A DNA stretch of 64,000 nucleotides, from the IMG/VR virus record IMGVR_UViG_3300033143_001932; one strand, given 5' to 3'. The notes beneath the pieces are model-generated. The model made no database searches. It was not told the DNA's origin and saw nothing but the letters and a program-made list of their open reading frames with translations. Both the position numbers and the translations under genes were made by a program. This DNA is from an uncultured virus (IMG/VR IMGVR_UViG_3300033143_001932). Lineage: Duplodnaviria; Heunggongvirae; Uroviricota; Caudoviricetes; Crassvirales. Shown one piece after another: positions 1,046-62,594 of this stretch. Every line of letters starts with the position of its first letter. Position 1 is the first letter of the stretch.

Positions 1046-1050
1046 AAACA

Positions 1051-15159: not shown

Positions 15160-15201
15160 TTGTTTGCCTGTATTTAATTAGGCATTTTGTAATGGCAATT
15201 C

Positions 15202-15238
15202 AAGAGAAGGGCACTCCAAAAAGAGTGCTCTTTTTTTT
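15202..15238 (+). terminator. intrinsic terminator
   Basis: AGGGCACTC-CAAAAA-GAGTGCTCT hairpin followed by a T-run. Confidence 0.75.
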
Positions 15239-15240
15239 GT

Positions 15241-15248
15241 TATCTTTG
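15241..15248 (+). promoter_or_regulatory. -7 promoter element TATCTTTG
   Basis: immediately after the terminator and before the tail genes. Confidence 0.65.
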
Positions 15249-15264
15249 TAGGAAATGATTCCTA

Positions 15265-16062
15265 ATGATAAATGAAGTCCGTAATACAGTCCTAGCTCTT
15301 CTTAATAAAAACAACAATGGATACTTAACTCCAGAAGAGTTTAATTTATTAGCCAAGCAAGCTCAGTTAGAGATATATGAAGCATACTTCTATAACTATA
15401 ACGATTGGTTAAATAAACGTAACGCTAGAGTTTCTAATAGTGAATCAGCAGATATTGCTAGAGGATACATAGAAGTAATAGATGGTTTCAGAGAACCTAA
15501 TGTACAATTAACTAAAGGGCTTTTAGGTAACGGATACTTTGAACTACCTAATAACTGGTATACTGTAGATGATGTTTATTTAGACCCTACAGGATTAGGT
15601 GTTAATTTTGAATCTTTTGTTCAAGCTGATAGAGTGAGCGCTACTAAAGCTTCTAGACTGTTAAGGTCTAACCTAACTACTCCAACTGTTGAATACCCTA
15701 TTTATTTTATGGCTGAGGACACTAACAATCCCCAACCAGGAAACACCACTGAAAGTGGAATTAAATTTTATCCTATTTTCTTAAGCGATGGTGTAACACC
15801 AGTTGACACAGGAGATGTATATATAAACTATGTAAGATATCCTTTGGACCCTAAGTGGACTTATCAAAGTATAGGTGCGGATGGGGATCCTATTTTTGAT
15901 CCAAATCAACCTGATTATCAAGATTTTGAAATACCTCTTGCTGATTTCATAGGTTTGGTTATCAAGATTTTAGAATACTCAGGATTAGTTATTAGAGAGC
16001 AAGAAGTTATGGCTTTCGCTAACTCTGAGGATATGGAAATTACACAACAAGATAATAGCTAA
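15265..16062 (+). CDS. tail ring/adaptor (head-tail connector) protein
   Basis: LLNKNNNGYLTPEEFNLLAKQAQLEI motif resembling ring proteins of Bacteroidota podoviruses; position. Confidence 0.65.
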   Translation: MINEVRNTVLALLNKNNNGYLTPEEFNLLAKQAQLEIYEAYFYNYNDWLNKRNARVSNSESADIARGYIEVIDGFREPNVQLTKGLLGNGYFELPNNWYTVDDVYLDPTGLGVNFESFVQADRVSATKASRLLRSNLTTPTVEYPIYFMAEDTNNPQPGNTTESGIKFYPIFLSDGVTPVDTGDVYINYVRYPLDPKWTYQSIGADGDPIFDPNQPDYQDFEIPLADFIGLVIKILEYSGLVIREQEVMAFANSEDMEITQQDNS

Positions 16063-35800: not shown

Positions 35801-36128
35801 AGAAGGAGAAGTAAGTAAATTGTGGGCAGAAAAATTTGAAAAAGAACGAAACGCTTTAATTAAATTTAGTGAAAAAGAAAGCTTTATAAAAGCTATAACC
35901 CCCAATGGTTTAGCTAAGATTTTTGATGCAATTTCAGGGGATGCAGAATTGTTAGACCTTGTTATTAAGCGAGTTCAAGGATATGATGAAATAAAAGAAA
36001 AAGAGAAAAGAAGAGTAGATAAATTATTTGAACTAACTAAAGGTAAAAAATACATTGAAGACGAACCAAAGAAACAGACTGAGAAAGCGAACGTGTTGAA
36101 GTATGAAGACGAAAACTCGGCTTATTGA
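26892..36128 (+). CDS. giant internal virion/ejection protein (3078 aa) with degenerate J-domain
   Basis: last gene of the structural block; helical, with Gly-rich hydrophobic segments and a J-domain-like stretch at about aa 1046-1098. Confidence 0.7.
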   Translation: MNDKTLESLYKKLGLEANNVSFEDFKGALEEYPEYRDNIFTALVDAKEYTQEERGAFDDLLKKKEETSELVGNQAPTTTTLATDQSAQEAVSASSDLESSQEPQNPQDVIQDEQEVVQAQDDTELQIQQENTQENTPPPVMANATVDQPEITSATPIIENQTDMTPPAEMPDEFAPINADDLMTSKSETGLYPQTQVGFEAGNEEDGNLANKKMDYTFYQIPVSEMEPDQASRVVNYMQENGLTELEARIKNPDIFINQKQLDALEQEREETNEFLEEGVGNIINTIGDDIYNDGLEVTEGENIPSDWSTELYTAPNGSTYDNKLEFINSPEGRQLIMEEKTSIAGGDIMNFDINRHILEDAFVFSGADPEQFGYYKNEDGEWGGPRRMFDYRGLTQESSGPGLQNVFDWGSFINPETNKPYDLTKVKSYDDLSVLWDKMSLHMNDDQAQRIMQEAYNQSINSVNNKIYDYGQNYLDRADQGVSRSYKQLRNAQYDLNLIVNNLAYYEGLDDKMKFAYDSKYTEATGLSYGAYLAQQWDFQQANVETALLEYEQQRSSWYSDETELIDLKTGKLINYADADQETLDYHQNIDESALKLVRRKGNNQGFLDEHLRRSYYNLMAISSTMPDNFAEAWWEGNSYFDVAQGALLEGMVGLSAEANKLFFDDEEMYNNIKEIGNSFSKWGGTDKQTLINSSMYDKNEAPELRDMRMKKLWYLDGNSPWINTFNEALYDFQSANRAVVLNEDYIQKAKLNPENKFNMYTRDLFMSFDYPDTPGTPDDPMSFGKYGPKEAANHWSQVLQQNGVQISDEDMAFMEQTFAEKGIHMSAQMTNFLYKFALTRGMFKGVVGTTGATAAAPQGVYRWDAVTAGLAGLGQSKAYQQSVFLLSSMLQEGLIMEAYQEGFEGGEGMGFLEGAALAGGSGAMNMAWKAINKIPFMAKMPATMEKFLNSQSQVVGGMGGMYTSELVHELGHNKEWGEIVNNVFAGPDNSPGEKALLLYFMTAGIQYSKTGKEDITQFRDAIKKDIQNIYNRSYKRVPASIAANYKKLGIRPDATDQEVVDAYLKASEKYEDKGGYRDPNKMEEFMELHEAYTTVKNHRGQKSNIEQGLGEIAKQEQQDKSNQERYDHLDDLAIKTTDPRTVMLGIPTSTENLTTLPSEQRILEEMQPTFNAEEANFWANKSEVEIKDSYGYINNLVKQGEVTSLQGEHMKQQISNVREMMKGLEVIENPEAKAEAYDLSNELIQQERLLNLYQSSKVSPSQKIKQVEARIKEINSRLTEIGNNIEAPASPIEKAQNEFNRLLEEKRMIESPSFRSSNSKEYVEQMLRDINGKISAQEEKMINEFGGQFSGGGSNRVYVEEVGPSKSKTETEKGDRIKVGEQEVIEEVPENLERENPELLDAEQKSSRDQKIEEMQAEGEQARITQLKDYIKELKEKGGDEKRVQELEKELNDLESKQVEPLKTEKDADSEPEPMEVPSEEQAESVQETEEIQPDDATPGPSEVSAQPKADKTTPPKRYKDLRDSENTSGDPQLERVYGEIESEIAEKVEARDRRDRYVKDRSAMTTKQQEATDRRVNAETKEAALEYLMRSKWYENATDLQRDAAFKEVSYRFGAPKKRLNAQDRANQAVGNKGRQKFVDELQMLKDQFKIANKAGKDVRYIVDNIRKYVDRNFTSKKGGVKINWTTGDAKKLYKNLTDERAVLEKAYTNKNGDRIKKSIARLEEITKEIDQLIENKTRPTYVAWLKENTVVDNLTTESGSAQISVNKIKELRQYVDNLKKPFEEMTTTELEQTISDVQQIIKEGKDAKTLERSRKQKSQMENKGKIAKELYVEGEDFSQDVNTYEEAEAYLGSQKTDLKQPLKTLELDQEKTFKNEQGEEVSLEKGISDKRSKLRKLREEAENIEEEVIADEVVADEVVAEEPVSDEVIELEPIDPTEADFSSYDVKNAEENPALEPYINSEVESSRDMLGGPKAIQETAELGKKLDADNANVVFKRDLGIVGGRRIFEFEVEGTGEKFLMYKSKGEGTGPESKGKWVPLKYFAKDGWFVKGRVDNEGNLSMEPLTNENNPKFNKYGSETFKELAKKLEADAEAVKNENTTETKEEVATEEVAETKRTKEDVQKEIEATENEIEQLEEVLNELPTQAELDAARDRLINEARDSDAIDKIENAYEKASKRLRQEEASSSVTFDPRDGFVLVTTKDGKTYLVKSKSDLNKIDPEEFESGTGYVSKDVQISRQQQQAIQGEELKDKLKSEAEKAVKKIAKPFHGASIKTIKTLLERVGLGKPELKEATVDIYEDIVAARRNIQKLADELTTSLNEVKKENKITDKFLLKAKSKDGKSSTRNIIKHETPESSYEITNDTAVDLYMLKIAEGKYRLEQTGVDVAELDSYMDANPELKKYAEDMLDWYESTRPYFKDVFEDVTGRTFEDFNRNPDGEELRYMPIWAKGTSERPGSDLITSDNFTLGIKGGKDQNYSSSVMTDRFKQRNDRWVMSKDGRWERPEGPYQMTGANTKALDYIKEMTHTNEMWDVNQKIKGLINPQTEGKLIDMMGEENYRSLKSQLDEITGGENKYQTQVESVINKVNKAGVVYRLAFNTLNIAKQATTATHWLGAGIKDGVYPWDMVAQSGLSVTDLVGKNGKEKVNFIWDIITDPQIKNRWKKTAIDPAFEEFINKASTTKEWSVTQKRRMLGKLLTDIGMKPTQVGDMLGVLGGGIPYALAYRTKYIKDGYSKAQASEMALGKMTKLMNELQQSQEGYATTPLQRSLLGRTFVTQYKSSQIQAVNKQMQVIQEIRDSKNATTNEKAQMAYDFIYWSMFNAGFSAFATGYAADVLGLSDSDDKGEERTQHNFIEGMMSSQLQGMGMLGLVAEFGMNEFIGQDWKNNNPMIDFISDITGAVYEASTTGIGDMTEKVEKGDLLKSVIDLEIKNKIIEAAENDGWSTAIDMYDDYMFSTHGDKLEGEGEVSKLWAEKFEKERNALIKFSEKESFIKAITPNGLAKIFDAISGDAELLDLVIKRVQGYDEIKEKEKRRVDKLFELTKGKKYIEDEPKKQTEKANVLKYEDENSAY
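31297..31464 (+). CDS. nested +1-frame 55-aa basic protein
   Basis: MPIVSQNQWKYLAKNKPKVFKRLKRYNPMTRLQDLPKSAPNRKPTRRPHRNVTRT; A-rich leader; resembles MPFxSxxQxxYLxxNxP small phage proteins. Confidence 0.6.
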   Translation: MPIVSQNQWKYLAKNKPKVFKRLKRYNPMTRLQDLPKSAPNRKPTRRPHRNVTRT

Positions 36129-48098: not shown

Positions 48099-48341
48099 TT
48101 ATTGTTTTAATAAGAGTTGTATTTTATCTCTTGTTTGTTCTAGTTGTTCTATATCTCTTTGTAAGTGTGGGTTGCAATCCTGGTTGCCGGTTTGTTCAGA
48201 CAACAGGAGCTGAAACTTCTTACTGTCAATTAATATGGTTAACTCTGTTATTACAGATATTAACCCCTTTGCTGTGTTTACGTCCATTTTATTAAGATTA
48301 GATATATCATTATTAATATGTTGAGCATTATGCTTATACAC
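48099..48341 (-). CDS. hypothetical protein
   Basis: 80-aa ORF, start uncertain. Confidence 0.45.
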   Translation of the reverse strand: MYKHNAQHINNDISNLNKMDVNTAKGLISVITELTILIDSKKFQLLLSEQTGNQDCNPHLQRDIEQLEQTRDKIQLLLKQ

Positions 48342-48378
48342 GCTAATTCAAATGCTCTTTTGGCTCTGTGGCTATACT

Positions 48379-48666
48379 TCATATTAAGTCTAGCTTTTCG
48401 ATTAGTTCTTGTGACTTATACTTTAACATTTTCTCACTATGCGCCTCTAGTATCATTCTATTTAGTACACTCGTTATTCCGCTAATTCCATCTACCATGA
48501 AATATGTAGCACTACTGTTATTATTTTTCCTGAAATAATAGAAGCTAGAACCACCATATTTGTTTGATAATTTTGTAATATCAGCAGCAAACTTGTCTAT
48601 TAATTCTCTGCACTCTGCGTTTACTTTAATTTGAAGTGCTTTTTCTATTGCGTTTGTTGTTTCCAT
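48379..48666 (-). CDS. hypothetical protein
   Basis: 95-aa ORF. Confidence 0.55.
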   Translation of the reverse strand: METTNAIEKALQIKVNAECRELIDKFAADITKLSNKYGGSSFYYFRKNNNSSATYFMVDGISGITSVLNRMILEAHSEKMLKYKSQELIEKLDLI

Positions 48667-48824
48667 TTATTTGTTTTTTGGTGAATAATTTTGAATTACA
48701 TATTTAGCGAACTCTACATAAATGTATTGTTCGTCATACATAAAATAGATTTTGTTTTTATGTATGGCTTTGAGGTATAGTTTTTTAAATTCTTCAAAGG
48801 CTTCCGGGGTGAAGTCAATCATTT

Positions 48825-49076
48825 TTAAGTTATTTCATTTACGTTATTTATAATTCGTGATTGGTCTTTGTCGTATTGTTTATAGTCTATAATAAACCCA
48901 ACTAAGACTATTATGTTCATTCCACAAGAGGCTAATATCTCATGAAGATCCGCATACACATTTAAAGATAAATGGATATGCCCTACCATCCAAAAGGGGA
49001 CGGCAAGGTTTTGACTTATCCATATTAAAGTAAACTTTGTTATGCTTTTTATTTTTAATTTATTTATAGTATACAT
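48825..49076 (-). CDS. small membrane protein
   Basis: 83 aa with two hydrophobic segments. Confidence 0.55.
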   Translation of the reverse strand: MYTINKLKIKSITKFTLIWISQNLAVPFWMVGHIHLSLNVYADLHEILASCGMNIIVLVGFIIDYKQYDKDQSRIINNVNEIT

Positions 49077-50136
49077 TTGTCATTTCATCTATTTGTTCAT
49101 CTTTATAGGTACTACAAGTCATGCAATAAAGCCTAGCTTCATACTCATCATACCACAACTCATCAGAACAGTTATTACAATCAACTCCAGCTTCCATAAC
49201 TTCACCTTCCATTCTTTCTTCTAAAGGGACATCTTCAAACTTTGGATTGTAATATTCCCAATTACCATCATCAGCCCATCTATCTTCTAATAAATAGCTG
49301 TCTACATACGATTGATGATGAACCCCACTATCCTTAACGGTGTCGTTAAAGTATGTCCACGCCTCTACTATCTCTCCGTTACTTAGTCGTATTGGAGTCT
49401 TTTGTCTTTTATACCAATTGGGGTGTCCTTCTAACATATCTATGTCTATCATTGTGTCTTTGTCAACTAGAAACACATCTACATCTACATTATGTCCTAC
49501 TCCCTTTTTACTTAGTAGGTATGGTAGTCCCTCTACTATAAGGGGATATTTGTATACAGTTTCACCTGAGTCTACATATTCTGATTGTGTTAGGTAGCTA
49601 TAATAATTACTATGTTTATATTTAAGCGTTCCGTATACAGCCATAAAACTAAACCCTAACACATTCTTCTTGCTATACATAATTCCATCGCTGTCGCTGT
49701 GCCACAGTTTAGGATTATATATTTCAAATGTTTTTTCTTTAGTATTAGCAACTACATATCTACAATTTGTCATTTCCAACACTTTCCTCCAACGACTTGG
49801 TGCTAAATCTGCTAGTATTTCAGCCAGCTCCTCAGTGTCGGTTGTTAGTAAATTCCCCAATCCTGGTACTGTTCCATTTTGGAATAAAAGATTGTCTTTA
49901 TCAATACTAAACGGATGACAGTTGTTGAGGTTTATTTTACCTACAGTTGCATACCTAAAGTGAGCTATAAACGGTCTAGGCGTTAACAGTTTTTCATATT
50001 TTTCACTTGGTATTTTTTCTAGTTCAAAAGTATCTAACCATATAATTCCTAGTCCGTCAGGGTTTTTTAGTGCTGAAGCAACAAGGGTTGCATGGTTAAT
50101 GATGTTTTTGTTTTCTTTAATTATTATTACACACAT
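49060..50136 (-). CDS. class-II glutamine amidotransferase fused to gamma-glutamylcyclotransferase (AIG2-like)
   Basis: N-terminal Cys (MCVII), NPDGLG, HFRYATVG, NCHPF, QNGT and TDTE; then AVYGTLK..IDMLEGHPNWYKR; C-terminal CxxC..CxxC. Confidence 0.85.
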   Translation of the reverse strand: MCVIIIKENKNIINHATLVASALKNPDGLGIIWLDTFELEKIPSEKYEKLLTPRPFIAHFRYATVGKINLNNCHPFSIDKDNLLFQNGTVPGLGNLLTTDTEELAEILADLAPSRWRKVLEMTNCRYVVANTKEKTFEIYNPKLWHSDSDGIMYSKKNVLGFSFMAVYGTLKYKHSNYYSYLTQSEYVDSGETVYKYPLIVEGLPYLLSKKGVGHNVDVDVFLVDKDTMIDIDMLEGHPNWYKRQKTPIRLSNGEIVEAWTYFNDTVKDSGVHHQSYVDSYLLEDRWADDGNWEYYNPKFEDVPLEERMEGEVMEAGVDCNNCSDELWYDEYEARLYCMTCSTYKDEQIDEMTNVYYK

Positions 50137-50137
50137 A

Positions 50138-51433
50138 TTATCTATCGTTTGATGGGTTAATGAATTCTTCTATTGAGTCGCTTACTTCATCAGCGATCAA
50201 GTAAGTTCTAAATGCACAAGCTAAGTCTATAATTTTCTTAACTTTCGCTTTATCGCCATACATTTTCATTAATATAGGCTTTACTCTTTTTATTAAAATT
50301 CCAAAGGGCGCTGAACCTTGTCCAACACTGGCATTTACAATTTGATACATTAAGTCATATCTTAGCTTTAGTTGTCTGGTGTTTTGAACTCTGTTCGGCA
50401 ATCTTATTTCTATAGCACTAATGTTTCTTTTTACCACTACAGTAGAATAATGAGGCGGGTGAGGTAGGTCCATCTTTTTATTATGCCTACAATGAGTGTT
50501 GTTTAATCGATATCTCCATAAAGCATACACTATAGATAAGTTTCCTCTCATTTTTTCAAGTAGATTTACGGGATTCATAAACAACTTCTTTTTAGCAAGA
50601 GTAGGGTGTAGAGCTGCGCTAATAGTGATATGTCCCCCACAGTCGGTATCACACTCCTCATCTATAATACACTCTGCCTCATCTATCCAATCAAATACTA
50701 TCTTTCTTTTTTTACTCCTAACCGGTGAGAGAGGTAATATGTGGGTTATAGCTTCCAATCCACAACTACTATCCGTTTCGAATTTAGCAAACAAGTCATA
50801 TTCTCCTATCTCCTCTCCTACATCATCTTGCCCATATCCATTAATGGTTGTTTTCTCAATTTCAAACCCTATTCTAAATTGAGCATTCATTGATTTATCC
50901 TCCGGGTCTGGACCTTTGTGATATTCACTAATGTGATCACATCCTCCATTTTCTTCTACAACATTGTCTTCATCCCAATAATAACACTCACGAGATTCAC
51001 ACCAGTGGGCGTCATCCTCGTGAACATAATCATCAATATCCTCACAATAACTCACGTCTTCATAATATACCCACTGTCCATCAGCCATACCATACGACAC
51101 ACACTTAAAATCATCTGAGTCTTCTAGCCATTCTTCAGTAGCCGCATTCTCACACCAAGTCATCATAATGTCTTGATTATGTATCCATTCCCCCATCATG
51201 TCGGACCACTGTACATCATCTAAGTGATATCTACAATCCCTAGAATCAACATAAGGAAAATCGTCTTCGTGGTCTTGGTGAATAAACCCCCGAGCAGGCG
51301 AAATGTTTTCTAAGGTTTCTTCTTTAAGAATGTATTCTTCTTGATATTCACTATAAACTATTTCGTCCGAGTGAACATCCATTGGTTCGTCTACATTGTA
51401 AACGGCAACCAGCTCTTTGCTTTGTGTTTTCAT
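50138..51433 (-). CDS. putative amidoligase (COOH-NH2 ligase) with acidic N-terminal repeats
   Basis: IGFEIE, ETDSSCGLEAIT, CGGHITIS and IEIRLP motifs; adjacent to the GATase. Confidence 0.75.
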   Translation of the reverse strand: MKTQSKELVAVYNVDEPMDVHSDEIVYSEYQEEYILKEETLENISPARGFIHQDHEDDFPYVDSRDCRYHLDDVQWSDMMGEWIHNQDIMMTWCENAATEEWLEDSDDFKCVSYGMADGQWVYYEDVSYCEDIDDYVHEDDAHWCESRECYYWDEDNVVEENGGCDHISEYHKGPDPEDKSMNAQFRIGFEIEKTTINGYGQDDVGEEIGEYDLFAKFETDSSCGLEAITHILPLSPVRSKKRKIVFDWIDEAECIIDEECDTDCGGHITISAALHPTLAKKKLFMNPVNLLEKMRGNLSIVYALWRYRLNNTHCRHNKKMDLPHPPHYSTVVVKRNISAIEIRLPNRVQNTRQLKLRYDLMYQIVNASVGQGSAPFGILIKRVKPILMKMYGDKAKVKKIIDLACAFRTYLIADEVSDSIEEFINPSNDR

Positions 51434-51443
51434 ATATTGTTAT

Positions 51444-51674
51444 TTACTTATTAACTTCTTCGTTTAAGAAATAGATGGTTTCATCTATGACTTCTAGGTA
51501 GATTTTACCTAACACAGGATCTATAGTGCCGTCTTGTATATCTTCATTCATATACTCTTGCATTTCATACATATTCTCTAATGCATATTCTACACGATAA
51601 CTCCTAACTGTGTTGTAGGTGGTAAATGACATTACTCCCAATGTCATAAACCCTAAGATTATTTTCTTCATCAT
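51444..51674 (-). CDS. small exported/membrane-anchored protein
   Basis: signal peptide MMKKIILGFMTLGVMS; paralogue of 53368-53634. Confidence 0.6.
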   Translation of the reverse strand: MMKKIILGFMTLGVMSFTTYNTVRSYRVEYALENMYEMQEYMNEDIQDGTIDPVLGKIYLEVIDETIYFLNEEVNK

Positions 51675-51675
51675 C

Positions 51676-51930
51676 TTAACTTATTACGGGAAACGTCCAG
51701 TCTTTTCCATCTTTACTTTGTCCAAACAACGCTCCACCATCATTACCCTCATCATCTCTTGAAGGCAACACAAGTGAGCCGTCATCAAACTCAATTACTA
51801 ATGGTCGATTGTACCAACCCATGTGTTCTTGTTCTTCTTGTGTAATGTATCTTACACTTTTTACTTTCTTACCGACAAGTCTCGTCCTTGCGTAGCTTGT
51901 CCATTGTAACTCTATGTTTTCTTTAGCCAT
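51676..51930 (-). CDS. conserved phage hypothetical protein
   Basis: LVGKKVKSVRY..PSRDDEGNDGGALF motif. Confidence 0.65.
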   Translation of the reverse strand: MAKENIELQWTSYARTRLVGKKVKSVRYITQEEQEHMGWYNRPLVIEFDDGSLVLPSRDDEGNDGGALFGQSKDGKDWTFPVIS

Positions 51931-52113
51931 AACTTTTATTTTATTTATAATTATTATTCATAGCGCCATGTATTACATTTTCTTCTAAGAATTCTACTAA
52001 ATCATTTATAAACTTGTTTGAATGTGGATTAGGTAATCCATATTTTTTACCGTTTACATAATCATTTACCATGAATACTATCTCTTGTAATGCTTCTTTA
52101 TCGCTCATATTAT

Positions 52114-52338
52114 TTATTTTACTTGATTTTTATAATTTATTATTTTGTTTATTTTTACCACTTGTATCCACTCTCTATAAGACCATTCACCCTCATATCC
52201 CATTTCCTTAGCTTCTTCTATCTCTTTTATACAGTCTTCTTCACTTTGCAATAGTTCATGAGATGAAAAAAGTTTATTATTTAATAATATGTCCCAATTC
52301 TCATCTCTTGTCCATTCTTTTCCATCATTATGTCCCAT
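52114..52338 (-). CDS. hypothetical protein
   Basis: 74 aa with AAATAAATGTTATG leader. Confidence 0.5.
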   Translation of the reverse strand: MGHNDGKEWTRDENWDILLNNKLFSSHELLQSEEDCIKEIEEAKEMGYEGEWSYREWIQVVKINKIINYKNQVK

Positions 52339-52354
52339 AACATTTATTTTATTT

Positions 52355-52612
52355 TTAATCGTATAAATCTATTAGAACTGCCATATACATTTCTTCTTGA
52401 TATATGAAGTTTCTACAAAGTCCCGTTTTATAATAAATATCATAATAATGTTCACACAACAACCACTCAAGCATTTCTTCTCCTTCTTGATCTAATGTGA
52501 TTACTTCTATTACTGGATAATACATATCCATTAACTTCATCTCAAAGTGTTCTTTTGCGTGTTCAATTATCCCTGCGGGCAGAGGTAATTCTCTTGGTTT
52601 TATGTGTTCCAA
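52355..52612 (-). CDS. hypothetical protein
   Basis: 85-aa ORF. Confidence 0.5.
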   Translation of the reverse strand: MEHIKPRELPLPAGIIEHAKEHFEMKLMDMYYPVIEVITLDQEGEEMLEWLLCEHYYDIYYKTGLCRNFIYQEEMYMAVLIDLYD

Positions 52613-52902
52613 ACTTGTATGTATTTATATAAATGTTCTGAGATATCTTGAGTCATAACGCGGTATCCCTCTGCCACAGTATATGCTTCAGCCTCCTTGT
52701 ATGTGTGAAATCCCACAAAAATTCTTTCCTTGGTGTATCTGCCATGTTTATCATTAACAGTATATACATTCCACTCAAATCCATTTAGATCAGCTTCGCT
52801 TTTATAATCTTCACCCCACCCATCGTCATTTAATAGGTTGATGGTTGCAGGGTCATTCCATCGTAGCTCTATCCACGCTTCTGGTTTTGTATCTTCACCC
52901 AT
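52600..52902 (-). CDS. hypothetical protein
   Basis: 100 aa; same leader as the gene starting at 52338. Confidence 0.55.
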   Translation of the reverse strand: MGEDTKPEAWIELRWNDPATINLLNDDGWGEDYKSEADLNGFEWNVYTVNDKHGRYTKERIFVGFHTYKEAEAYTVAEGYRVMTQDISEHLYKYIQVWNT

Positions 52903-52928
52903 AACATTTATTTATTTATATATCCAAT

Positions 52929-52959
52929 AAAAAAAGCCAACGCTAATGATAGGTTGACT
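52929..52959 (-). terminator. probable intrinsic terminator
   Basis: - strand AGTCAAC...GTTGGCT followed by a T-run. Confidence 0.5.
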
Positions 52960-53002
52960 AATAACATCAAGATATCTCCTTGATACTTCTTTATAAATTG
53001 TT

Positions 53003-53371
53003 TCATTGATTCAATAATTTTGTTAGGTGATACGCTTGTTTTAGACTTATTGTACCTTGCTCTACAAGATACGCCTCAAGTTTTGCTTCATCTTCTTCAC
53101 GCTCTTCTTTAGTACGGTCGTCAATATTAACTTGACTCTCCATTCTAAGTAGATGTTTTTGTTCTTCAGAAAGCAGATGAGTCAATAGTCCCTGGACCGC
53201 TTCATACTTTTCAGCAGCTTCTTCTAATTGACTAATCCATTCGTCTTGTTCCTCTTCGCTTTTAAAAGGTTCGTTTGTTGCGTTGGGGTATAGTTTGGGG
53301 AAAAAAGTCACTGACCCAAATATATTGGATAAAGCGTCTTCTACTAGTTGTCTAAATTTTCTCTTTTTCAT
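53003..53371 (-). CDS. hypothetical protein
   Basis: 122 aa, helical. Confidence 0.55.
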   Translation of the reverse strand: MKKRKFRQLVEDALSNIFGSVTFFPKLYPNATNEPFKSEEEQDEWISQLEEAAEKYEAVQGLLTHLLSEEQKHLLRMESQVNIDDRTKEEREEDEAKLEAYLVEQGTISLKQAYHLTKLLNQ

Positions 53372-53634
53372 TTTGTAGTCCTTTCTATTTTATTTAAATT
53401 ATTATACACTACTATCAATCGATCTATGGTTACTTCATACTGCTTTATGTATAAGTCCCCTATCTCTTCATTAAGAGTCCCATTCTCAATGTCTTGCATT
53501 GCCCACTCTATATAATCTTGAAGGTCATTGATTGATTCGCTTACCTCAAACTTAGTCAACTCTAGCTTAGTTTGACCCATACATACTGACATCATTCCGA
53601 CCATCAGTATACTTAATGTAATTAGTTTTTTCAT
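53368..53634 (-). CDS. small exported protein
   Basis: signal peptide ending in G-Q; paralogue of 51444-51674. Confidence 0.6.
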   Translation of the reverse strand: MKKLITLSILMVGMMSVCMGQTKLELTKFEVSESINDLQDYIEWAMQDIENGTLNEEIGDLYIKQYEVTIDRLIVVYNNLNKIERTTK

Positions 53635-53840
53635 CTTAGCATTGTTCCGTAACCTTTTCGTCTTGTCATTTTTGCTATTGTTTCAGCATCTTCTCTTGAC
53701 AATATCTCTATACTGTTACCTGTTTTATGATTAATAACTGGTGAACAACCGTACTTTTGCACAGTTGAACACTTAACACATACTTTATACCCCAAGTCTA
53801 TCCGTCCTTGAGGTATTACTTGATTGCATTTACATTTCAT
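53631..53840 (-). CDS. TraR/DksA-type C4 zinc-finger protein
   Basis: CKCNQVIPQGRIDLGYKVCVKC. Confidence 0.65.
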   Translation of the reverse strand: MKCKCNQVIPQGRIDLGYKVCVKCSTVQKYGCSPVINHKTGNSIEILSREDAETIAKMTRRKGYGTMLR

Positions 53841-54178
53841 TTCTTCATAATCTAATTTTGCTTGATTAGTCTTAGTTCTTCTTTTTCAACAAAATCAGCC
53901 ACAGCTCCTACACTAAATGGTTGGTTTTTTTCGACTAAATCATCTATTGCTTGTCGGACTATACGCCCATGAGTTTTAAGCATTATTTCATTGAAGTGAT
54001 CTTCGTTAAGTTGTTTTTTATTTTTCGGCATAACATTTTTTTAGCTCAATAAACCCATCTTTAAGGACGGTTAGTTCATTGAATAGTTCAACATAAAAAG
54101 GTTCTGATAGTCTAAAGGCTCGGTGGGCTACATAATCAATATGTTTAGCCCACGCCTTAAGGTTTTTGATTGGCTCTA

Positions 54179-54394
54179 CTACCATCCTTTTGTTTCCTTT
54201 AATTTAGCTATTTTTTGATTAATCTTTTCGCTAGAGTTTAACACCTTTCTTTTATAGGCTGCTCTTTCTTTAGCTTTTAAAACTTTCCTAGCTTCGCCTA
54301 CAGTTAAGCTTTTTGTGTTCATAATTTCTCTTAACTTGTCGTATTTTGCAATACCGTCCCAAACTTGTTTAGATATTCTTTCGTTTTGTGTCAT
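54179..54394 (-). CDS. hypothetical basic protein (start probably 54394)
   Basis: MTQNERISKQ... with ATGTTATG leader. Confidence 0.5.
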   Translation of the reverse strand: MTQNERISKQVWDGIAKYDKLREIMNTKSLTVGEARKVLKAKERAAYKRKVLNSSEKINQKIAKLKETKGW

Positions 54395-54483
54395 AACATA
54401 TTTATTTAAAAAACGGTTGCATTTGAAACGTAGCAACCTCCACGCCAATTTATTTATGTAAATGAATTCTTCTGTTCTAGTCA

Positions 54484-54729
54484 TTATCCAAGGTTTTTGA
54501 ATTCCCACTGGACCAGCTTCTCCATTCGTTTATTGTGTAATATTTTCTTTGCTTTATCGAAAGTACAGTCGTATATCTTTTGACACATCTTAATACTTTC
54601 TAAATATGAAGTCATATCTCCCTCACCTAAATCTTTACTTTGTTTTGTTGTTTCAGCTATCAGCTGTTGCTCTTCCTCGCAAACGAACTGTCTAACAGTC
54701 GGTCTGCGTCTTTTGTTTGTGTTTGTCAT
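54484..54729 (-). CDS. hypothetical protein
   Basis: 81-aa ORF. Confidence 0.5.
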   Translation of the reverse strand: MTNTNKRRRPTVRQFVCEEEQQLIAETTKQSKDLGEGDMTSYLESIKMCQKIYDCTFDKAKKILHNKRMEKLVQWEFKNLG

Positions 54730-54746
54730 AATATGTTTTTAATATT

Positions 54747-55148
54747 TTAATAGAACCAACCCTGATGATAACAATCTTCAGGTCTTTCGTTTACCCATTC
54801 AGATATTGGGTTTCTAACTACATTAGGCACAAGTCCTTCAGGCATTTGCTCAAGTATTTGGTCGTAGGTGTAGCTATTTTTGTTTAAAAATTCTTCGTGC
54901 TGGTAATACAGTTTACGCTTTTCTTCCGGTGTCTTAACGAGATCTATCTCGGACCAAATTCTTCTTGATTCTTTGAATGTTTTTCTAGTCATAAACCTAC
55001 CATATCCGTCATAAACTCCTCCATAAGTGTTACCTAAATGGTCTATTATATATGCAGTTTTAGTGAATGGCTCGCTCGGTGTTCCTTCATAGTATTGATT
55101 CGTTACCGATTCGTTAGTGTCTTGTGTTATGTAGCTAAAAAATCCCAT
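54747..55148 (-). CDS. conserved phage hypothetical protein
   Basis: MGFFSYITQDT..YDGYGRF..DCYHQGWFY; preceded by AGGAGG. Confidence 0.65.
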   Translation of the reverse strand: MGFFSYITQDTNESVTNQYYEGTPSEPFTKTAYIIDHLGNTYGGVYDGYGRFMTRKTFKESRRIWSEIDLVKTPEEKRKLYYQHEEFLNKNSYTYDQILEQMPEGLVPNVVRNPISEWVNERPEDCYHQGWFY

Positions 55149-55163
55149 TTTACTTTCCTCCTT

Positions 55164-55265
55164 TTAAAATTGGTTTGTAATATACATTAAGAATATGTGT
55201 AGCATTACAGCTACTGTAGCACCGATCAGCGCCACTACTCCATCATTGTTTAATAACTCTTTCAT
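55164..55265 (-). CDS. 33-aa single-TM peptide (not in ORF track)
   Basis: MKELLNNDGVVALIGATVAVMLHIFLMYITNQF; preceded by AAAAGGAGGAAAGTAAA. Confidence 0.55.
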   Translation of the reverse strand: MKELLNNDGVVALIGATVAVMLHIFLMYITNQF

Positions 55266-55282
55266 TTTACTTTCCTCCTTTT

Positions 55283-55477
55283 TTAATTGATTAATCTCAT
55301 TATTTCGTACACATCTGTAGTTGCATACTGTTTCTTTTTTAGTTCTATAAACCCTTCAGCTTTTAGAAGTTTTTGGTGGTATCTCTTTCTTTGTTCGATA
55401 TTGAATATATTGTAGTATAACACTACTAATCTATTAGCTTCTTTAAGCTGGTCGAGTTCTGTTTTAAATTGTGCCAT
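55283..55477 (-). CDS. hypothetical protein
   Basis: 64-aa ORF. Confidence 0.5.
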   Translation of the reverse strand: MAQFKTELDQLKEANRLVVLYYNIFNIEQRKRYHQKLLKAEGFIELKKKQYATTDVYEIMRLIN

Positions 55478-55576
55478 TTTACTTATTTAATGATTTAATA
55501 AATTGTCTTAACTGATTCACTCTAACATTAGAGCTGTCATTAAGAGCTTCTTTGATTTGCTGTTGTATTTTGTCCA

Positions 55577-55641
55577 TAGTGGCAATACAGAGAATCGAAC
55601 TCCGTTACCTATTATTTCAGTTTGTCAACCTGACTATTGCC
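55577..55641 (-). ncRNA. tRNA-like element lacking a D-arm
   Basis: acceptor stem GGCAATA/TATTGCC, T-arm CGGAG-TTCGATT-CTCTG, hairpin TCAGG-TTGACAA-ACTGA, 3' end ACTA. Confidence 0.55.
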
Positions 55642-55644
55642 AAT

Positions 55645-55679
55645 AAAAAAAGAGGGCAACTTTTATTGTTACCCTCTTT
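55645..55679 (-). terminator. intrinsic terminator closing the non-coding region
   Basis: AGAGGGTAAC-N7-GTTGCCCTCT followed by T6. Confidence 0.75.
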
Positions 55680-56378
55680 AGTTTTATCTCCTTATCCATC
55701 ATTGTCATATATCCGACCTCAGTCTTAATTTTTGACTTAGATATAATTTAACTTTTGAACAGGATCTGCTCTCCTTATTTATAAACACAACCTAGCAGTT
55801 GATAGGAAGCTTAGTATTTCGGCAGTTTTTACCTGCTTTACCCACTTACCAAATATTTCAATTCAGTTGTCTTTAAACATAGGGTGCAACTTTACACAAT
55901 GCGCCTCGCTTTACGTGTTTTCGCTATATATTTAACCAGCTCCTGATCGAAAAATCAGTCCATACCTTAGACCTCAGTTCTAGTTAAACTCTCTGCTTCT
56001 TTAGTCCATTTATGCGCACTACTCGAACGCTTTCGCACTCAAAACTTACCTAAATTGCATCTCTAGACATACATACCTGCCTAGATGGTTTTTAAACTTT
56101 CAAAGGGTTAAATAAAACGTGCTGAATTGTTATTGAATTCGCCATTTAAACAACTATAAGAACGCTTATAAATGCTGCTAAATGCTTTACGGTAGAGGTT
56201 CTAACATTAAGACCTTAAGAACGCTTAAAATCTGTCAGATTTGCTACAATTAACCTTTGAATTAACGCCCAATTAAAAGGGCGTTAAACGCTTAATTAAA
56301 AAAGATATAAAGAACTATTTGCCGTCAACACTCAGTTAAAAAACTGTCAACCCTTCGGAAGTTGAAATGGTGTTTTAC
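55680..56378 (-). ncRNA. putative large structured non-coding RNA
   Basis: about 700 nt with no ORF of 60 aa or more in any frame, many hairpins, one long-range helix, bounded by terminators. Confidence 0.55.
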
Positions 56379-56403
56379 AAAAAGGGGGCTATTTTGCCCC
56401 CTT
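56379..56403 (-). terminator. intrinsic terminator after the first early gene
   Basis: AAGGGGGC-AAAATA-GCCCCCTTTTT. Confidence 0.75.
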
Positions 56404-56407
56404 ATAT

Positions 56408-56839
56408 TTATTTAGAATTCTTTGATAGTCTGCTCAATACGTTGCAAACTTGGTGAGTAGAAAAATACTCTTTTTTAACATCTGTAATAGTGTACTTATT
56501 ACCCTCTTTTACGCTTTTAAACCTTTCGTATCTAGTCAAATTAGATAAGAAAGACTTAACCGTTAACGCTGAGATATTTAACTTTGATTTGTTGCTCTTA
56601 TTCAGGTAATCAATAAACGCTTGCGTTTGCTCTAATCCCTCACCTTTACAGAATTTAACTATCCCGTTTGCGCTCCTAGTAGTTTCTAGGTATTTGCTTT
56701 TTACAATTCTTCTCAATTGTACGTTTTCGTTGATTTTAGGTGTTTTTTTAGTTGACTTTGCACCTGATAAACTAACTTCTTCTGTTGTTGTTCTTTTACT
56801 ATTCTTCGAAGAAACAACGCTTTTTATTTGTGTTTTCAT
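56408..56839 (-). CDS. basic hypothetical protein, first gene of the early block
   Basis: 143 aa, K/S/T-rich. Confidence 0.65.
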   Translation of the reverse strand: MKTQIKSVVSSKNSKRTTTEEVSLSGAKSTKKTPKINENVQLRRIVKSKYLETTRSANGIVKFCKGEGLEQTQAFIDYLNKSNKSKLNISALTVKSFLSNLTRYERFKSVKEGNKYTITDVKKEYFSTHQVCNVLSRLSKNSK

Positions 56840-56843
56840 ATTG

Positions 56844-56875
56844 CAATAATACGTTATAAATATTTAATAAACAAA
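56844..56875 (-). promoter_or_regulatory. early promoter (nearly leaderless transcript)
   Basis: - strand TTTG-N20-TATTATTG ending 4 nt before ATG 56839. Confidence 0.6.
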
Positions 56876-56914
56876 TTATTTACAAGTTTTTTTTATTTTA
56901 TTTACATTTTACTG

Positions 56915-57260
56915 AGGTAATTAAGGGGACAACAAAGAGTTAATAAGACAATAGAAAGGTTTTAAGAGGGTTTAAAAGGGTTGAAATGTTAAGGGGTTTA
57001 AAGAGGGGTTAAGGGTGTTATCCCTTTGCTTAAAGGGTGCAAGGGTTAAGAGTTTAATGAAGGGTAAAGGGGGACGGGGTACGGGTACGGGGTTGAGTAT
57101 TGCAGTAATGAGGGGGGGGAGTTAGTGTGATCACGCGCGCGCGTGTCCACGCGTTAGCGCGCAAGCGCGCGAGTGCGTGCGAGGTGTGCGAAAACGTGAA
57201 AAAGTTCGGGCGAAATTTTTTAAAAAAAGAACCCCCCTTGTTTTTTAAATCGTTTTTCTG
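56915..57260. other. G-skewed and CG-alternating non-coding block at the strand switch
   Basis: repeated AAGGG(G)TT, G-tracts at 57062-57119 and CGCG runs at 57132-57182 in an otherwise AT-rich genome. Confidence 0.7.
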
Positions 57261-57326
57261 GTGGGGTCGAGTCGTCAGCGCGTGGGGGTCATCCCCTGGT
57301 TATATGTATGTGATAAAATTTTTTGC

Positions 57327-57334
57327 TATCTTTG
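57327..57334 (+). promoter_or_regulatory. -7 promoter element TATCTTTG
   Basis: 16 nt upstream of ATG 57351. Confidence 0.65.
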
Positions 57335-57350
57335 TTATAAACTATACAAC

Positions 57351-59723: not shown

Positions 59724-60020
59724 ATGGCAAAAACTTCTAAAGCAAGCATGCCTTGCAACAAACCAAGGAGATCTAATCGTCCAGGAAAAAAAATGATGGT
59801 TAAAGGCTGTGAAGGTGGAAAGGAAAAACTTCTACACTTTGGAGCTAAAGGTTATGGTCATAATTATTCTCCAGCAGCTCGTAGGTCATTCAGAGCTAGA
59901 CACAAATGTGCTACAGCTACAAGTAAATTAACGGCTAGATATTGGGCGTGTAAAAAACTGTGGGCTGGAAAAGGGGGCTCCACTAAAAGCTCTCCAAAAA
60001 ATAAACAAGGAAAATATTAA
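59724..60020 (+). CDS. conserved small basic viral protein
   Basis: LLHFGAKGY..RRSFRARHKC..TARYWAC motif. Confidence 0.7.
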   Translation: MAKTSKASMPCNKPRRSNRPGKKMMVKGCEGGKEKLLHFGAKGYGHNYSPAARRSFRARHKCATATSKLTARYWACKKLWAGKGGSTKSSPKNKQGKY

Positions 60021-60024
60021 CACA

Positions 60025-60210
60025 ATGAATTATAGAACATCACTTCCATTACATGAGACAGAGTTTCTTGATGAGTGGCCCAAAAAGAAAAGAAAAAATA
60101 AATCAAAAGGGAACAATAGGTCTATTAAGGATAAAAGAAGAGCTCATAAGAAGCAGCTAAAAAAGTGTGGTAAAAAAACCTTGGGAAGCTGTAAGGTTGT
60201 AAAAAGATAA
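60025..60210 (+). CDS. basic protein with RTSLPLHxTEF leader (copy 1)
   Basis: MNYRTSLPLHETEF followed by a K/R-rich tail. Confidence 0.7.
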   Translation: MNYRTSLPLHETEFLDEWPKKKRKNKSKGNNRSIKDKRRAHKKQLKKCGKKTLGSCKVVKR

Positions 60211-60254
60211 GATATAGCTAAGAAAAGAAAAGTAACTAGAAAAAAAAGTAAGAC

Positions 60255-60455
60255 ATGAGTAAGATGACTAACAGAAAACGCAAATGCCCTAAAGGAGAAA
60301 GGTTTAATAAGGGTAAAAACAAATGTGTAGAAACACTTATTAGTAAAGCTGGCATAGACAGCCCAGGGGCTGTAGCTGGTTTAATTGGTGTTTTAGGTGG
60401 AGGATTAGGAGCTTACGCTAAAGTAAAGTCGGATATTAAAAAGCAAGGACGATGA
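60255..60455 (+). CDS. small basic protein with Gly-rich hydrophobic segment
   Basis: KCPKGERFNKGKNKCV plus AVAGLIGVLGGGLGAYA. Confidence 0.6.
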   Translation: MSKMTNRKRKCPKGERFNKGKNKCVETLISKAGIDSPGAVAGLIGVLGGGLGAYAKVKSDIKKQGR

Positions 60456-60619
60456 ATTATAGAACATCGCTCCCGTTACACCCAACCGAATTTCCTGAAG
60501 TGTCTAAAAAAGATAGACGAAAGGTTAAAAGATATTCCCGCAAAGCGGTAAAAGGTAAGTCCACAAAGAAAAGTAGACGAGAGACTAGTAAGTTATATTA
60601 TAAAATAGTAGGATTGTAA
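60452..60619 (+). CDS. basic protein with RTSLPLHxTEF leader (copy 2; not in ORF track)
   Basis: MNYRTSLPLHPTEFPEVSKKDRRKVKRYSRKAVKGKSTKKSRRETSKLYYKIVGL; ATGA overlap with the upstream stop. Confidence 0.75.
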   Translation: MNYRTSLPLHPTEFPEVSKKDRRKVKRYSRKAVKGKSTKKSRRETSKLYYKIVGL

Positions 60620-60649
60620 AGAATCTTAAGAAACAAACAAGAAATAATT

Positions 60650-61066
60650 ATGTCATATAGAACCTCATTACCATTGCACCCAACTGAATTTGGAAAACCT
60701 TTAGTAACTAAGAAAAGGAAAAAACACGCCAGATCTATTCGCCCTACATCTAGAAAAAATCCAGATGGAAGTAGAAGTTCACATATAATGGAGTCTGGTG
60801 AGTCTGACGGCAAGTACAAATATCAAGTAAACCCAACCCTATTAAAAGAAGGCACAGCAGGGTGGAGAGAAGCACAGAAACGAGGAGAGGTATATGGATT
60901 TAAGAGTAAGAAAAGAGCTGAAAAGTTTGCTTATGGCAGTTGGAAAAAGGGAAAAGATAAAAGAACCGGCATGAAGCACTATCGTTGTGAGAAAAAAGGA
61001 TATACCTGGAACAACAATACCAATACTTGTGAGAAAAAGAAAACAGGTAAAAAAAGAAACAAATAA
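60650..61066 (+). CDS. basic protein with RTSLPLHxTEF leader (copy 3)
   Basis: MSYRTSLPLHPTEF; NPDGSRSSH..AQKRGEVYGF..AEKFAYGSWK. Confidence 0.7.
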   Translation: MSYRTSLPLHPTEFGKPLVTKKRKKHARSIRPTSRKNPDGSRSSHIMESGESDGKYKYQVNPTLLKEGTAGWREAQKRGEVYGFKSKKRAEKFAYGSWKKGKDKRTGMKHYRCEKKGYTWNNNTNTCEKKKTGKKRNK

Positions 61067-61095
61067 AATAACTATCTTTACAAAAAAACAAAATT

Positions 61096-61332
61096 ATGAA
61101 ACAAGGATATAACTCAAGACTAGATGAATCTTTAGGTGCAAAGCACGGAAAGAAGTCACAAAGCTATGCGTCAAGAAGACATGAAAGCGAAGCTATGGAA
61201 AAAAAATATCATGGTCACAAGTATGGATCAGATGCAGATATGTCTTATAGAGACAATTTTAAAGACAAGTGTGCGCACGTTGTAAAAGGTGGACACGTTG
61301 CTAAAGCACTAGAGCATCAATTTAGAAAATAA
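61096..61332 (+). CDS. small basic His-rich protein
   Basis: MKQGYNSRLDESLG..RRHESEAMEK; TATCTTTA at 61073-61080 upstream. Confidence 0.65.
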   Translation: MKQGYNSRLDESLGAKHGKKSQSYASRRHESEAMEKKYHGHKYGSDADMSYRDNFKDKCAHVVKGGHVAKALEHQFRK

Positions 61333-61335
61333 GAC

Positions 61336-61596
61336 ATGGCTAGTAAGTTAGAAAAAATGAGGGAAAAGCCCGGAGGTTCTAACGCTGGTAAATACAAAAA
61401 CGTTTCTAAAGGAGACTTTTGTGGACCATCAGGAGGAGCACCTCAAGGTAGTTACCCGGTAAACACAAGGGAGAGAGCTGAATCAGCTCTTAAGCTTGCT
61501 CACAATGCACCTAATCCAGAAGGGATTAAGTCTTGTGTGTATAGGAAATACCCAGGTCTTAAGAAAAAAAGCTTAATGCATAATCGTAAGAAGTAA
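61336..61596 (+). CDS. small basic protein
   Basis: FCGPSGG..SYPVNTRERAESALKLAHNAPNPEGIKSCV. Confidence 0.65.
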   Translation: MASKLEKMREKPGGSNAGKYKNVSKGDFCGPSGGAPQGSYPVNTRERAESALKLAHNAPNPEGIKSCVYRKYPGLKKKSLMHNRKK

Positions 61597-61964
61597 TGTC
61601 TAAACTAGGTGGAGGTAAGCACGAGCGTCAATTAAAGAGAGAGGAGCGTAGGCGTAGGCGTCAGTGGCAAAAAAGATCTTCAGCAAAAGGTGTAGAAAAA
61701 CCTAATTGCACTACTCTTTCTTGTCGAAACCCAGGGACTAAGAGTAAAGCTCAAAGACAAAGGGAGAGAGAGGCTCGTAAAGATGAGCGTCAAGACAACA
61801 GAGCTAAAAACAAGCAATTAAGAAAAGATAAAAGAGAGCTAAAAAAAGACATTAGAAAAGAAAAGAGAGCGGTGAGAAAGAGTTCTAAAACGAAACCCAT
61901 CCCATCTTTAATTGCTGGTCCTCCAAAATCTAAAGAAAAATCTAAAAACCCTAGGTTTATGTAG
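61596..61964 (+). CDS. very basic low-complexity protein
   Basis: 122 aa, R/K-rich. Confidence 0.6.
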   Translation: MSKLGGGKHERQLKREERRRRRQWQKRSSAKGVEKPNCTTLSCRNPGTKSKAQRQREREARKDERQDNRAKNKQLRKDKRELKKDIRKEKRAVRKSSKTKPIPSLIAGPPKSKEKSKNPRFM

Positions 61965-61965
61965 A

Positions 61966-62379
61966 TTACCATCTTCCTTGATTAATATCTTTTATAACCT
62001 TACGATAAACTTTATCATTATATGTAACCCGCTCTTTTAGGAGTGGGTTTCTTTTTGGTGTAGATGGAATCTTCTCTTCACCATTAAGTATTTTGTATGC
62101 TCTATTAACCAAAGTCTTAGCTTTATGTGAAAGCTCATAAAGAGAATACCCACGACCATGTTGTTTCCTCCAGGTCACAATCCACCCTTCATTCATTAAA
62201 CGTTTAAATCGTTTTCGCTCCCAATTAAAAACAGCTTCATAGTCATCAAATATTTTTTTAGTGAACCTACCTTCACTATATAAAAAAAGAATAAGATCTA
62301 AATCTGACTGATTTAAATTATATTTACGTTTGATGTAATAGCGAACTACGCGCCAATGTTTCAGGAAGTCTGTGTTCAT
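61966..62379 (-). CDS. winged-helix (MarR-like) regulator
   Basis: YNLNQSDLDLILFLY..FKRLMNEGWI..YELSHKAK; only - strand gene in the late block. Confidence 0.65.
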   Translation of the reverse strand: MNTDFLKHWRVVRYYIKRKYNLNQSDLDLILFLYSEGRFTKKIFDDYEAVFNWERKRFKRLMNEGWIVTWRKQHGRGYSLYELSHKAKTLVNRAYKILNGEEKIPSTPKRNPLLKERVTYNDKVYRKVIKDINQGRW

Positions 62380-62403
62380 AAAAACTAATATAACATTTTT
62401 ATT

Positions 62404-62411
62404 TATCTTTG
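62404..62411 (+). promoter_or_regulatory. -7 promoter element TATCTTTG
   Basis: divergent from the wHTH gene, upstream of ATG 62430. Confidence 0.65.
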
Positions 62412-62429
62412 CAATAAACCTAATTAAAT

Positions 62430-62594
62430 ATGAAAAGTAGAGGACTAGGAGATAGTATCCATAAAATTACCAAAGCTACAGGTGTTCACACCTTAGTTGA
62501 TAAAGGAGCGAAAGCTTTAGGAAAGTCAGATTGCGGGTGTGATAAGCGTAGGGATACATTGAATCGTTTAATACCTTATCGCAAAAATAAATAA
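62430..62594 (+). CDS. 54-aa conserved phage protein (not in ORF track)
   Basis: MKSRGLGDSIHKITKATGV...DCGCDKRRDTLN. Confidence 0.7.
   Translation: MKSRGLGDSIHKITKATGVHTLVDKGAKALGKSDCGCDKRRDTLNRLIPYRKNK

Follow-up and report, generated by a model that had tools for sequence, protein, structure and literature searches.

Large non-coding RNAs are known from several phages. ROOL (RF03087; 581 nt) and GOLLD (RF02032; often over 800 nt) occur in phages, often next to tRNAs, according to the accessible parts of the papers that describe them (PMC5737381, PMC12286853). The available portion of a preprint on the Bacteroidota phage phi14:2 reports abundant, stable early intergenic RNAs (bioRxiv 10.1101/2020.03.07.982082). 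The functions of GOLLD, ROOL and the phi14:2 RNAs are unknown. Two other kinds of system bear comparison with the locus described here: tRNA-mimic signals, such as RNase P sites of the pre-tmRNA type and mascRNA/menRNA (RF01684), and the antitermination systems lambda N/nut and HK022 put.

The DNA analyzed, hereafter the window, is a 64-kb stretch that encodes terminase, portal, primase/helicase, Sak-like annealing protein, GroEL and GroES, which is the gene content of a tailed-phage genome. Its terminase has 69% identity to that of an uncultured spring phage and 44% to those of Flavobacterium elemo phages, with the terminases of Cellulophaga, Tenacibaculum and Maribacter phages ranking below the latter in similarity. 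From these similarities the source is judged to be a GroEL-encoding Bacteroidota podovirus with affinities to Elemovirus and Pervagoviridae. The minus strand carries the early genes, from 56839 downwards, and the plus strand carries GroEL and the late genes, from 57351. Between the first early gene and the remaining early region lies a gap that the initial annotation had singled out as the longest ORF-free stretch; so it is, with 930 nt that contain no ATG ORF of at least 45 aa (55478-56407) against 511 nt for the runner-up, the rest of the genome being densely coding. The annotation had also named conserved small peptides as the finding that would speak against an RNA. None of the six frames has a coding trace (the longest minus-strand run without stops is 37 codons) or, with stops read as X, a PHROG match, and small peptides or a decayed gene were rejected on this basis. 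The gap probably holds a new, orphan early phage RNA. Our preferred reading, to which we give a probability of about 45%, is that it is a unit for an early, minus-strand non-coding RNA about 650 nt long, which would start at its own promoter, stop at an intrinsic terminator, be trimmed by RNase P and present twin loops to a protein.

Flavobacterial sigma-A promoters have the -7 consensus TAnnTTTG, as given in the accessible text of PMC9723704. A relaxed regex scan of the minus strand from 53000 to 57000 returned two matches only. The first promoter-like site, P1 (56874-56844; TTG ... TAttATTG, one mismatch to the consensus), precedes the first early gene. The second, P2 (56328-56300; TTG-N17-TAtcTTTT), agrees at 7/8 positions, the mismatch being the last G, and stands just after a GC-rich hairpin, T1 (56376-56403), which has a U5 tail on the minus strand and an A/T tail on the plus strand as well and is possibly a bidirectional terminator. 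At the far end of the gap is T2 (55641-55679), an intrinsic terminator with a 12-bp stem and a U7 tail. Of the two minus-strand terminators that had been said to bracket the gap, the 3' one was called on that strand by the scan, whereas the 5' one (56382-56403) was listed on the plus strand only, its U5 tail being seen by eye. With a transcription start predicted near 56297 from P2 and a 3' end predicted at the U tail of T2, the candidate RNA would likely extend from about 56297 to 55645, and so measure about 650 nt and not 730. The 616 nt between the terminators contain no promoter or terminator match. From T2 to 53000, too, the relaxed scan found no promoter match on the minus strand; transcription of the early genes that follow may therefore require polymerase to read through T2. 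No RNA run was listed as containing the gap. Contigs from three RNA runs of the same study cover only a low-complexity 33-nt stretch elsewhere and have no bearing either way on transcription.

All the motifs named in the initial annotation, including a tRNA-like element at 55580-55641, were found where it had placed them. The 5' domain of the predicted RNA (56290-56095, minus strand) begins with a perfect 9-bp hairpin (56262-56287), confirmed in the sequence, and continues with a long-range helix of 12 bp with one bulged base (56250-56261 with 56099-56111; pair probability 0.7-0.9), which closes a multibranch. Inside this are two G-U-containing TAAG-CGTT-CTTA hairpins with the common loop CGUU (56215-56228 and 56155-56170; pair probabilities 0.94 and 0.91) and a third hairpin. 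There follow, on the same strand, a 7-bp hairpin (56063-56084; p 0.93, with z -2.87 for 56058-56092), a GAAA-tetraloop stem of 8 bp, three of them G-U (56023-56042; p 0.78), a 10-bp stem round the first copy of a motif (CUGAG-GUC-loop-GAC-UGAU; 55930-55989; z -2.08) and the second copy of this motif (CUGAG-GUC-loop-GAC-AA-UGAU; 55699-55723), which has a tandem G-A and may be kink-turn-like. The word ACTGAGGTC occurs twice (55970-55978 and 55715-55723) and AAGCGTT four times, and repeated 6- to 9-mers are above chance (p 0.005-0.03; 2000 shuffles).

How much of the gap is structured? The 196 nt of the 5' domain score z -5.25 on the minus strand (0/200 shuffles), or -3.46 without the first hairpin. 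Genome-wide, one of 160 sense-strand windows of this length folds better, one having z below -5 and five below -4. The fold of the domain is thus unusual, though its ends were picked after the fold had been seen. The whole 759 nt score -4.0 on the minus strand and -1.6 on the plus, and the 616 nt between the terminators only -1.45, so the two terminators account for much of the full-length signal; for the 83 nt that follow T1 (56296-56378), z is 0.06. The description of about 730 structured nucleotides is hence supported for the 5' domain of about 200 nt but not over the whole length. The choice of the minus strand as the RNA strand is supported by the promoter match, the terminator and better folding on that strand. 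RNA folding energies are -52.4 (minus) versus -43.3 kcal/mol (plus) for the 5' domain and -92.7 versus -58.0 kcal/mol for the rest of the gap, and the domain reaches only z -2.77 as RNA on the plus strand. The flanking stem pairs of the two CGUU hairpins differ and both hairpins remain paired, their G-U pairs being readable on the minus strand only; a strand-neutral count of G-U against A-C, 1 to 1, is uninformative.

No Rfam family reaches its cut-off anywhere in the window, and at E<=10 the 2001 and 751 nt scanned at the locus gave only weak, short matches. The initial annotation had put forward such a cmscan as a check. The Rfam models of self-cleaving ribozymes, group I and II introns, tmRNA and RNase P RNA had no match, and by-eye resemblances to group I, group II domain 5, hammerhead, twister, RNase P and tmRNA were dropped; twister-P5 was found in 0/38 records, its controls likewise giving no match. 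RF02032 had no match at E<=10 on the 2001 and 751 nt, nor had RF03087 at E<=10, and at E<=1 each was found in 0/26 records, the near-identical record G001 among them. Since the family controls were likewise without match, this negative rests mainly on the direct scans. The suggested kinship with GOLLD and ROOL comes down to similar size and setting. Like ROOL, the gap has a similar length, a phage context and a tRNA-like element nearby, but ROOL is defined by six junctions and three pseudoknots with covariation, whereas the gap has no model match and the window no true tRNA. Like GOLLD, it would be a large phage non-coding RNA with a GAAA loop, but in GOLLD the 3' part is the best conserved, whereas the gap folds best at its 5' end and does not match that conserved region. 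As a functional parallel, the early RNAs of phi14:2 come closest; the accessible part of the preprint places them at the g004-g005 and g005-g006 junctions, and here too a Bacteroidota phage has a long intergenic stretch among its first early genes. There is no sequence or model match between them, however, and phi14:2, a crassvirus, has a virion RNA polymerase and RNAs that were seen by RNA-seq, whereas transcription here is predicted, from a host-type promoter. In phi14:2 itself (L294) one of the long early intergenic stretches, at about 4030-4500 and without annotation in the record shown, has ends that look tmRNA-like by eye (a GGGG start; T-arm plus acceptor end).

The tRNA-like element (55580-55641, minus strand) comprises a 7-bp acceptor and a T stem of 5 bp capped by the loop TTCGATT; it has no D arm. 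A true tRNA was rejected: the element scores 19 bits with the Rfam tRNA model (cut-off 29), the D arm is missing in the alignment, and ARAGORN finds no tRNA gene in the window. Its features suggest a candidate RNase P site. The accessible text of PMC10731613 states that RNase P recognises its substrates by the 12-bp acceptor/T stack, which it measures, by contact with the T loop and by a preferred U(-1)/G(+1), and that many pre-tRNAs lack an encoded CCA. The element has the 12-bp stack, the T loop and U(-1)/G(+1); it ends A-CTA, with no encoded CCA and without the 3' RCCA, and its acceptor pairs have a probability of 0.30 in the full-length ensemble. Known tRNA-mimic signals share the 7+5-bp stack, the TTCGA loop, U(-1)/G(+1) and a place between a long RNA and the sequence that follows, but here the element comes after a terminator and before a small ORF, and it scores 22 bits against a cut-off of 42.5 with RF01684 and has neither D arm nor RCCA. 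The small ORF (32 aa; 55479-55577, minus strand; no PHROG match) starts 3 nt past the element and is possibly the first gene of the downstream mRNA.

An acceptor-plus-T-arm descriptor matched the window once, exactly at 55580-55641. In relatives it gave 10 matches in 9/22 loci (213,665 bases in all, with some records contributing more than one locus; the match in L143 is weak), and in five Markov nulls 0, 1, 0, 0 and 0 matches. The tRNA-like element noted after the 3' end thus proved real in kind. In 15 loci scanned, three elements from relatives score above the Rfam tRNA cut-off, and ARAGORN calls none of the three. Several are bare acceptor-plus-T-arm mini-helices between small early genes (L140 8092-8133, L141 718-763, L142 3929-4068), that of L142 coming after a terminator nearly identical to T1. 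Others (L132 4681-4811, L136 9847-9968 and 10095-10191, L144 4212-4294, L145 5048-5151, L004 about 7990-8080) are tRNA look-alikes with D and T arms in which long, variable inserts replace the anticodon arm; ARAGORN misses them, and the acceptor GTCAGG/CCTGAC is common to several. A firmer side result is that the early regions of GroEL-encoding Bacteroidota podoviruses often contain tRNA mimics without an anticodon; this suggests that host RNase P serves to cut early phage transcripts. One of nine relatives examined, L134, repeats the layout of the window: after a promoter-like site there is an ORF-free stretch of about 400 nt (845-1260, minus strand), with no credible Rfam match, that ends in a tRNA-like element. 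It has no sequence similarity to the gap and folds no better than z -1.9.

Besides G001, no homologue of the gap was found in 58 related phage records, and blastn found only 34-37-nt terminator-level matches in GenBank phages and no homologue in plasmids. BLAST, nhmmer and two covariance models (R1 and R2) were run on 54-59 related records, which are distant (terminase 63-75%, GroEL about 50%), and gave no credible match outside G001. With BLAST, 14/54 IMG/VR records had matches of 16-47 nt (best E 7.5e-4), none of which extended. The covariance models matched 1/59 records, namely G001; each was built from two near-identical sequences, which limits its reach, and the 3' 240 nt are outside both. 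Motif scans were no more productive. The GAAA stem had 6 matches in IMG/VR, unrelated in the contexts shown; the twin-loop pattern occurs in at least 118 stretches in metagenomes and 26 in IMG/VR, and BLAST of 144 listed loci gave no homologue (best E 0.29 among the matches listed); a three-motif pattern has at least 119 stretches in genomes and again no homologue (best E 0.57 among the matches listed). Scans anchored on the neighbours (the first early protein, its relatives and ORF 54747-55148) yielded no locus. A literature search that covered mainly open-access papers found no paper on this RNA, and the accessible part of a preprint on language-model mining of non-coding RNAs (10.64898/2026.09.22.753630) has nothing on this element.

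Between G001 and the window there are 3 differences in the gap and 22 in the first early gene, but none in 48103-54852. Two of the three gap differences fall on predicted pairs in the 3' part and are uncompensated, one of them inside the repeated ACTGAGGTC; the 5' domain has none. Selection on an RNA was considered as a reason for so few changes in the gap and rejected, since 48103-54852 has no difference at all; it is the first early gene that is the odd tract, and the comparison is silent on the RNA. The 22 differences in that gene are mostly at third codon positions and the flanking kilobases are identical, so that, judged from this pattern, the gene is a recombined tract. It encodes a 143-aa Lys-rich protein (56408-56839, minus strand) with disordered residues 1-31 and a mainly helical core predicted with confidence. 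The protein has a few relatives in metagenomes and no Pfam or PHROG family; Foldseek matches have E>0.4, and the best VIA Z, 3.6 to ECF sigma region 2, is below any trustworthy level. In a close variant, P0012, the C-terminus differs, which hints at exchangeable DNA behind the gene. As a partner of the RNA the protein is a candidate only.

Could the gap instead be a cis-acting processive antiterminator, in which the nascent RNA modifies the polymerase to pass T2 into the early genes, either alone (as HK022 put does) or together with host Nus factors and the basic protein (in the manner of lambda N/nut)? The element sits between P2 and T2, and the lack of a minus-strand promoter match from T2 to 53000 leaves room for such a role. 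Common to this locus and the lambdoid systems are a small basic first early gene, a boxA-like word, a hairpin and terminators close together. The boxA-like word, GTTCTTTA (56315-56308, minus strand), resembles words ahead of the 16S/23S genes in two Bacteroidota genomes (AGTTCTTTGA, AGCTCTTTGA), and the L134 leader has GTTCTTTGA. However, the word is part of P2 and so precedes the predicted start; as it also comes after T1, it would be of no use for passing that terminator. Its 8-mer class occurs 13 times in the window, and the motif noted initially does not stand out from chance. The site moreover follows the first gene and its terminator, unlike nut and put, and is about ten times longer than these, which fall far short of 600 nt. 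Lambda N is an unstructured, arginine-rich protein, whereas the basic protein has Lys-rich disordered residues and a predicted folded helical core. The initial annotation had allowed for a cis-acting antiterminator: its attenuator form, by alternative pairing, is made unlikely by the core pairs of T2, which have a probability of 1.0 in the 727-nt ensemble and so give no sign of a classical attenuator, and the processive type, for which a T2 that stays folded in context is also unfavourable, is left as an unlikely explanation. Similarly unlikely, we think, is that the gap is not one RNA but an untranslated early leader made of separate pieces, of which the 5' domain, the terminators and the tRNA-like site matter and the other 400 nt or so are loose filler or decayed sequence. 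This fits the unremarkable folding of 55685-56095 (411 nt; z -1.48, not above chance) and of 55780-55925 (z +0.45), the two uncompensated G001 changes in the 3' part as against none in the 5' domain, and the absence of the gap from all 58 other records searched. Set against it are the lack of any promoter or terminator match inside the 616 nt, the motif repeated across the 3' part, the presence of AAGCGTT(C) in both 5' and 3' parts and a genome otherwise densely coding. Poor MFE scores are, besides, common for pseudoknotted RNAs.

Nor need the gap act as RNA at all. As a DNA-level element, it might have inverted repeats that extrude hairpins or bind a dimeric protein (the TAAG-N4-CTTA boxes), an example being a replication origin primed by transcription from P2. 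With DNA parameters the 5' domain does fold alike on the two strands (z -3.85 and -3.91), the cumulative GC skew has its minimum near 56 kb, and the phage encodes a primase/helicase. Yet the G-rich skew of the minus strand runs through most of the gap and flips only at about 56850, outside it and with gene direction; the stems depend on G-U pairs on one strand; and relatives that share its replication and structural genes do not have the element. A better control-region candidate is the GC-rich divergent gap at 56840-57350, in which the C/G strand skew is strong, CGCG-rich palindromic runs occur and AACCC(C/T)TT words recur; it is a candidate terminus or origin. RNA is the better reading, though not the sole one, and we consider the DNA element very improbable. 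We give as little credence to a highly diverged relative of GOLLD, ROOL or a similar ornate RNA, forming one fold unit and a self-assembling cage. The size of about 650 nt, the phage location and the tRNA-like neighbour would suit it, the twin identical loops and the GAAA loop could make intermolecular contacts, and there are some 5-6-nt loop complementarities, which are A/U-rich and might arise by chance; but neither RF02032 nor RF03087 matches at E up to 10, and outside the 5' domain nothing points to pseudoknots or multiple junctions.

In the preferred reading, that of an early non-coding RNA, host sigma-A polymerase would start near 56297 at P2, whose activity is suggested by its motif, with T1 insulating the unit from the first gene. 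The first 200 nt or so would form the multibranch domain, a fold with statistical support, and show two identical CGUU loops on long G-U-containing stems, and the remainder might form a looser chain of hairpins. Most transcripts would end at T2, a terminator by consensus, giving a discrete RNA. Read-through would enter the early genes, and host RNase P may then cut at the tRNA-like elbow, as its tRNA geometry and the like elements in relatives suggest; this would part the RNA from the mRNA and leave the latter with a protected 5' end, 64 nt upstream of the 32-aa ORF. Finally, the likeliest job of the RNA would be that of a scaffold or decoy, its repeated loops binding a host factor or the Lys-rich upstream product, but this last step, taken alone, is doubtful. 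The RNA reading is favored by the ORF-free gap with no coding trace, by promoter, terminator and folding strand all being minus, by the skew, by CGUU hairpins kept paired and by enriched repeated words, as well as by the descriptor statistics, the L134 layout, the RNase P determinants and the early RNAs of phi14:2. Against it count the missing homologue, the z of -1.45 for the 616 nt, a 5' domain that is equal as DNA on both strands, the uncompensated G001 changes, the P2 mismatch, the missing RCCA, the acceptor probability of 0.30 and the unlike sequence of L134. A stronger version, in which the whole 650 nt or so is one undescribed large phage RNA that forms an RNP with the Lys-rich protein through the twin CGUU loops, is improbable. 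Such an RNA would be made in the first minutes of infection; it and the protein would travel together as an exchangeable cassette with terminators and an RNase P site at its borders, and would act on the host, at the level of transcription, translation or defence. If real, the unit would add an unrelated further large phage non-coding RNA, equipped with a promoter and terminator of its own, a candidate partner protein and a site for processing, and compact enough to be transcribed and tested in vitro.

Several observations elsewhere in the window are recorded here. The best-folding 196-nt window genome-wide (15201-15396, plus strand; z -5.89) lies between two late ORFs. In the early region, two 30-nt copies that are 90% identical (55146-55175 and 55263-55292, minus strand) stand ahead of adjacent early ORFs and end in AAGGAGGAAAGTAAAATG. 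This word strongly resembles a Shine-Dalgarno sequence, although mRNAs of the phylum to which the phage is assigned, the Bacteroidota, are without such sequences according to the abstract of PMC6847099. A 3078-aa ORF (26892-36128, plus strand) has no PHROG match. After GroES there are about ten very basic small ORFs (59724-62594, plus strand), several of which share the N-terminal motif Y-R-T-S-L-P-L-H-x-T-E-F.
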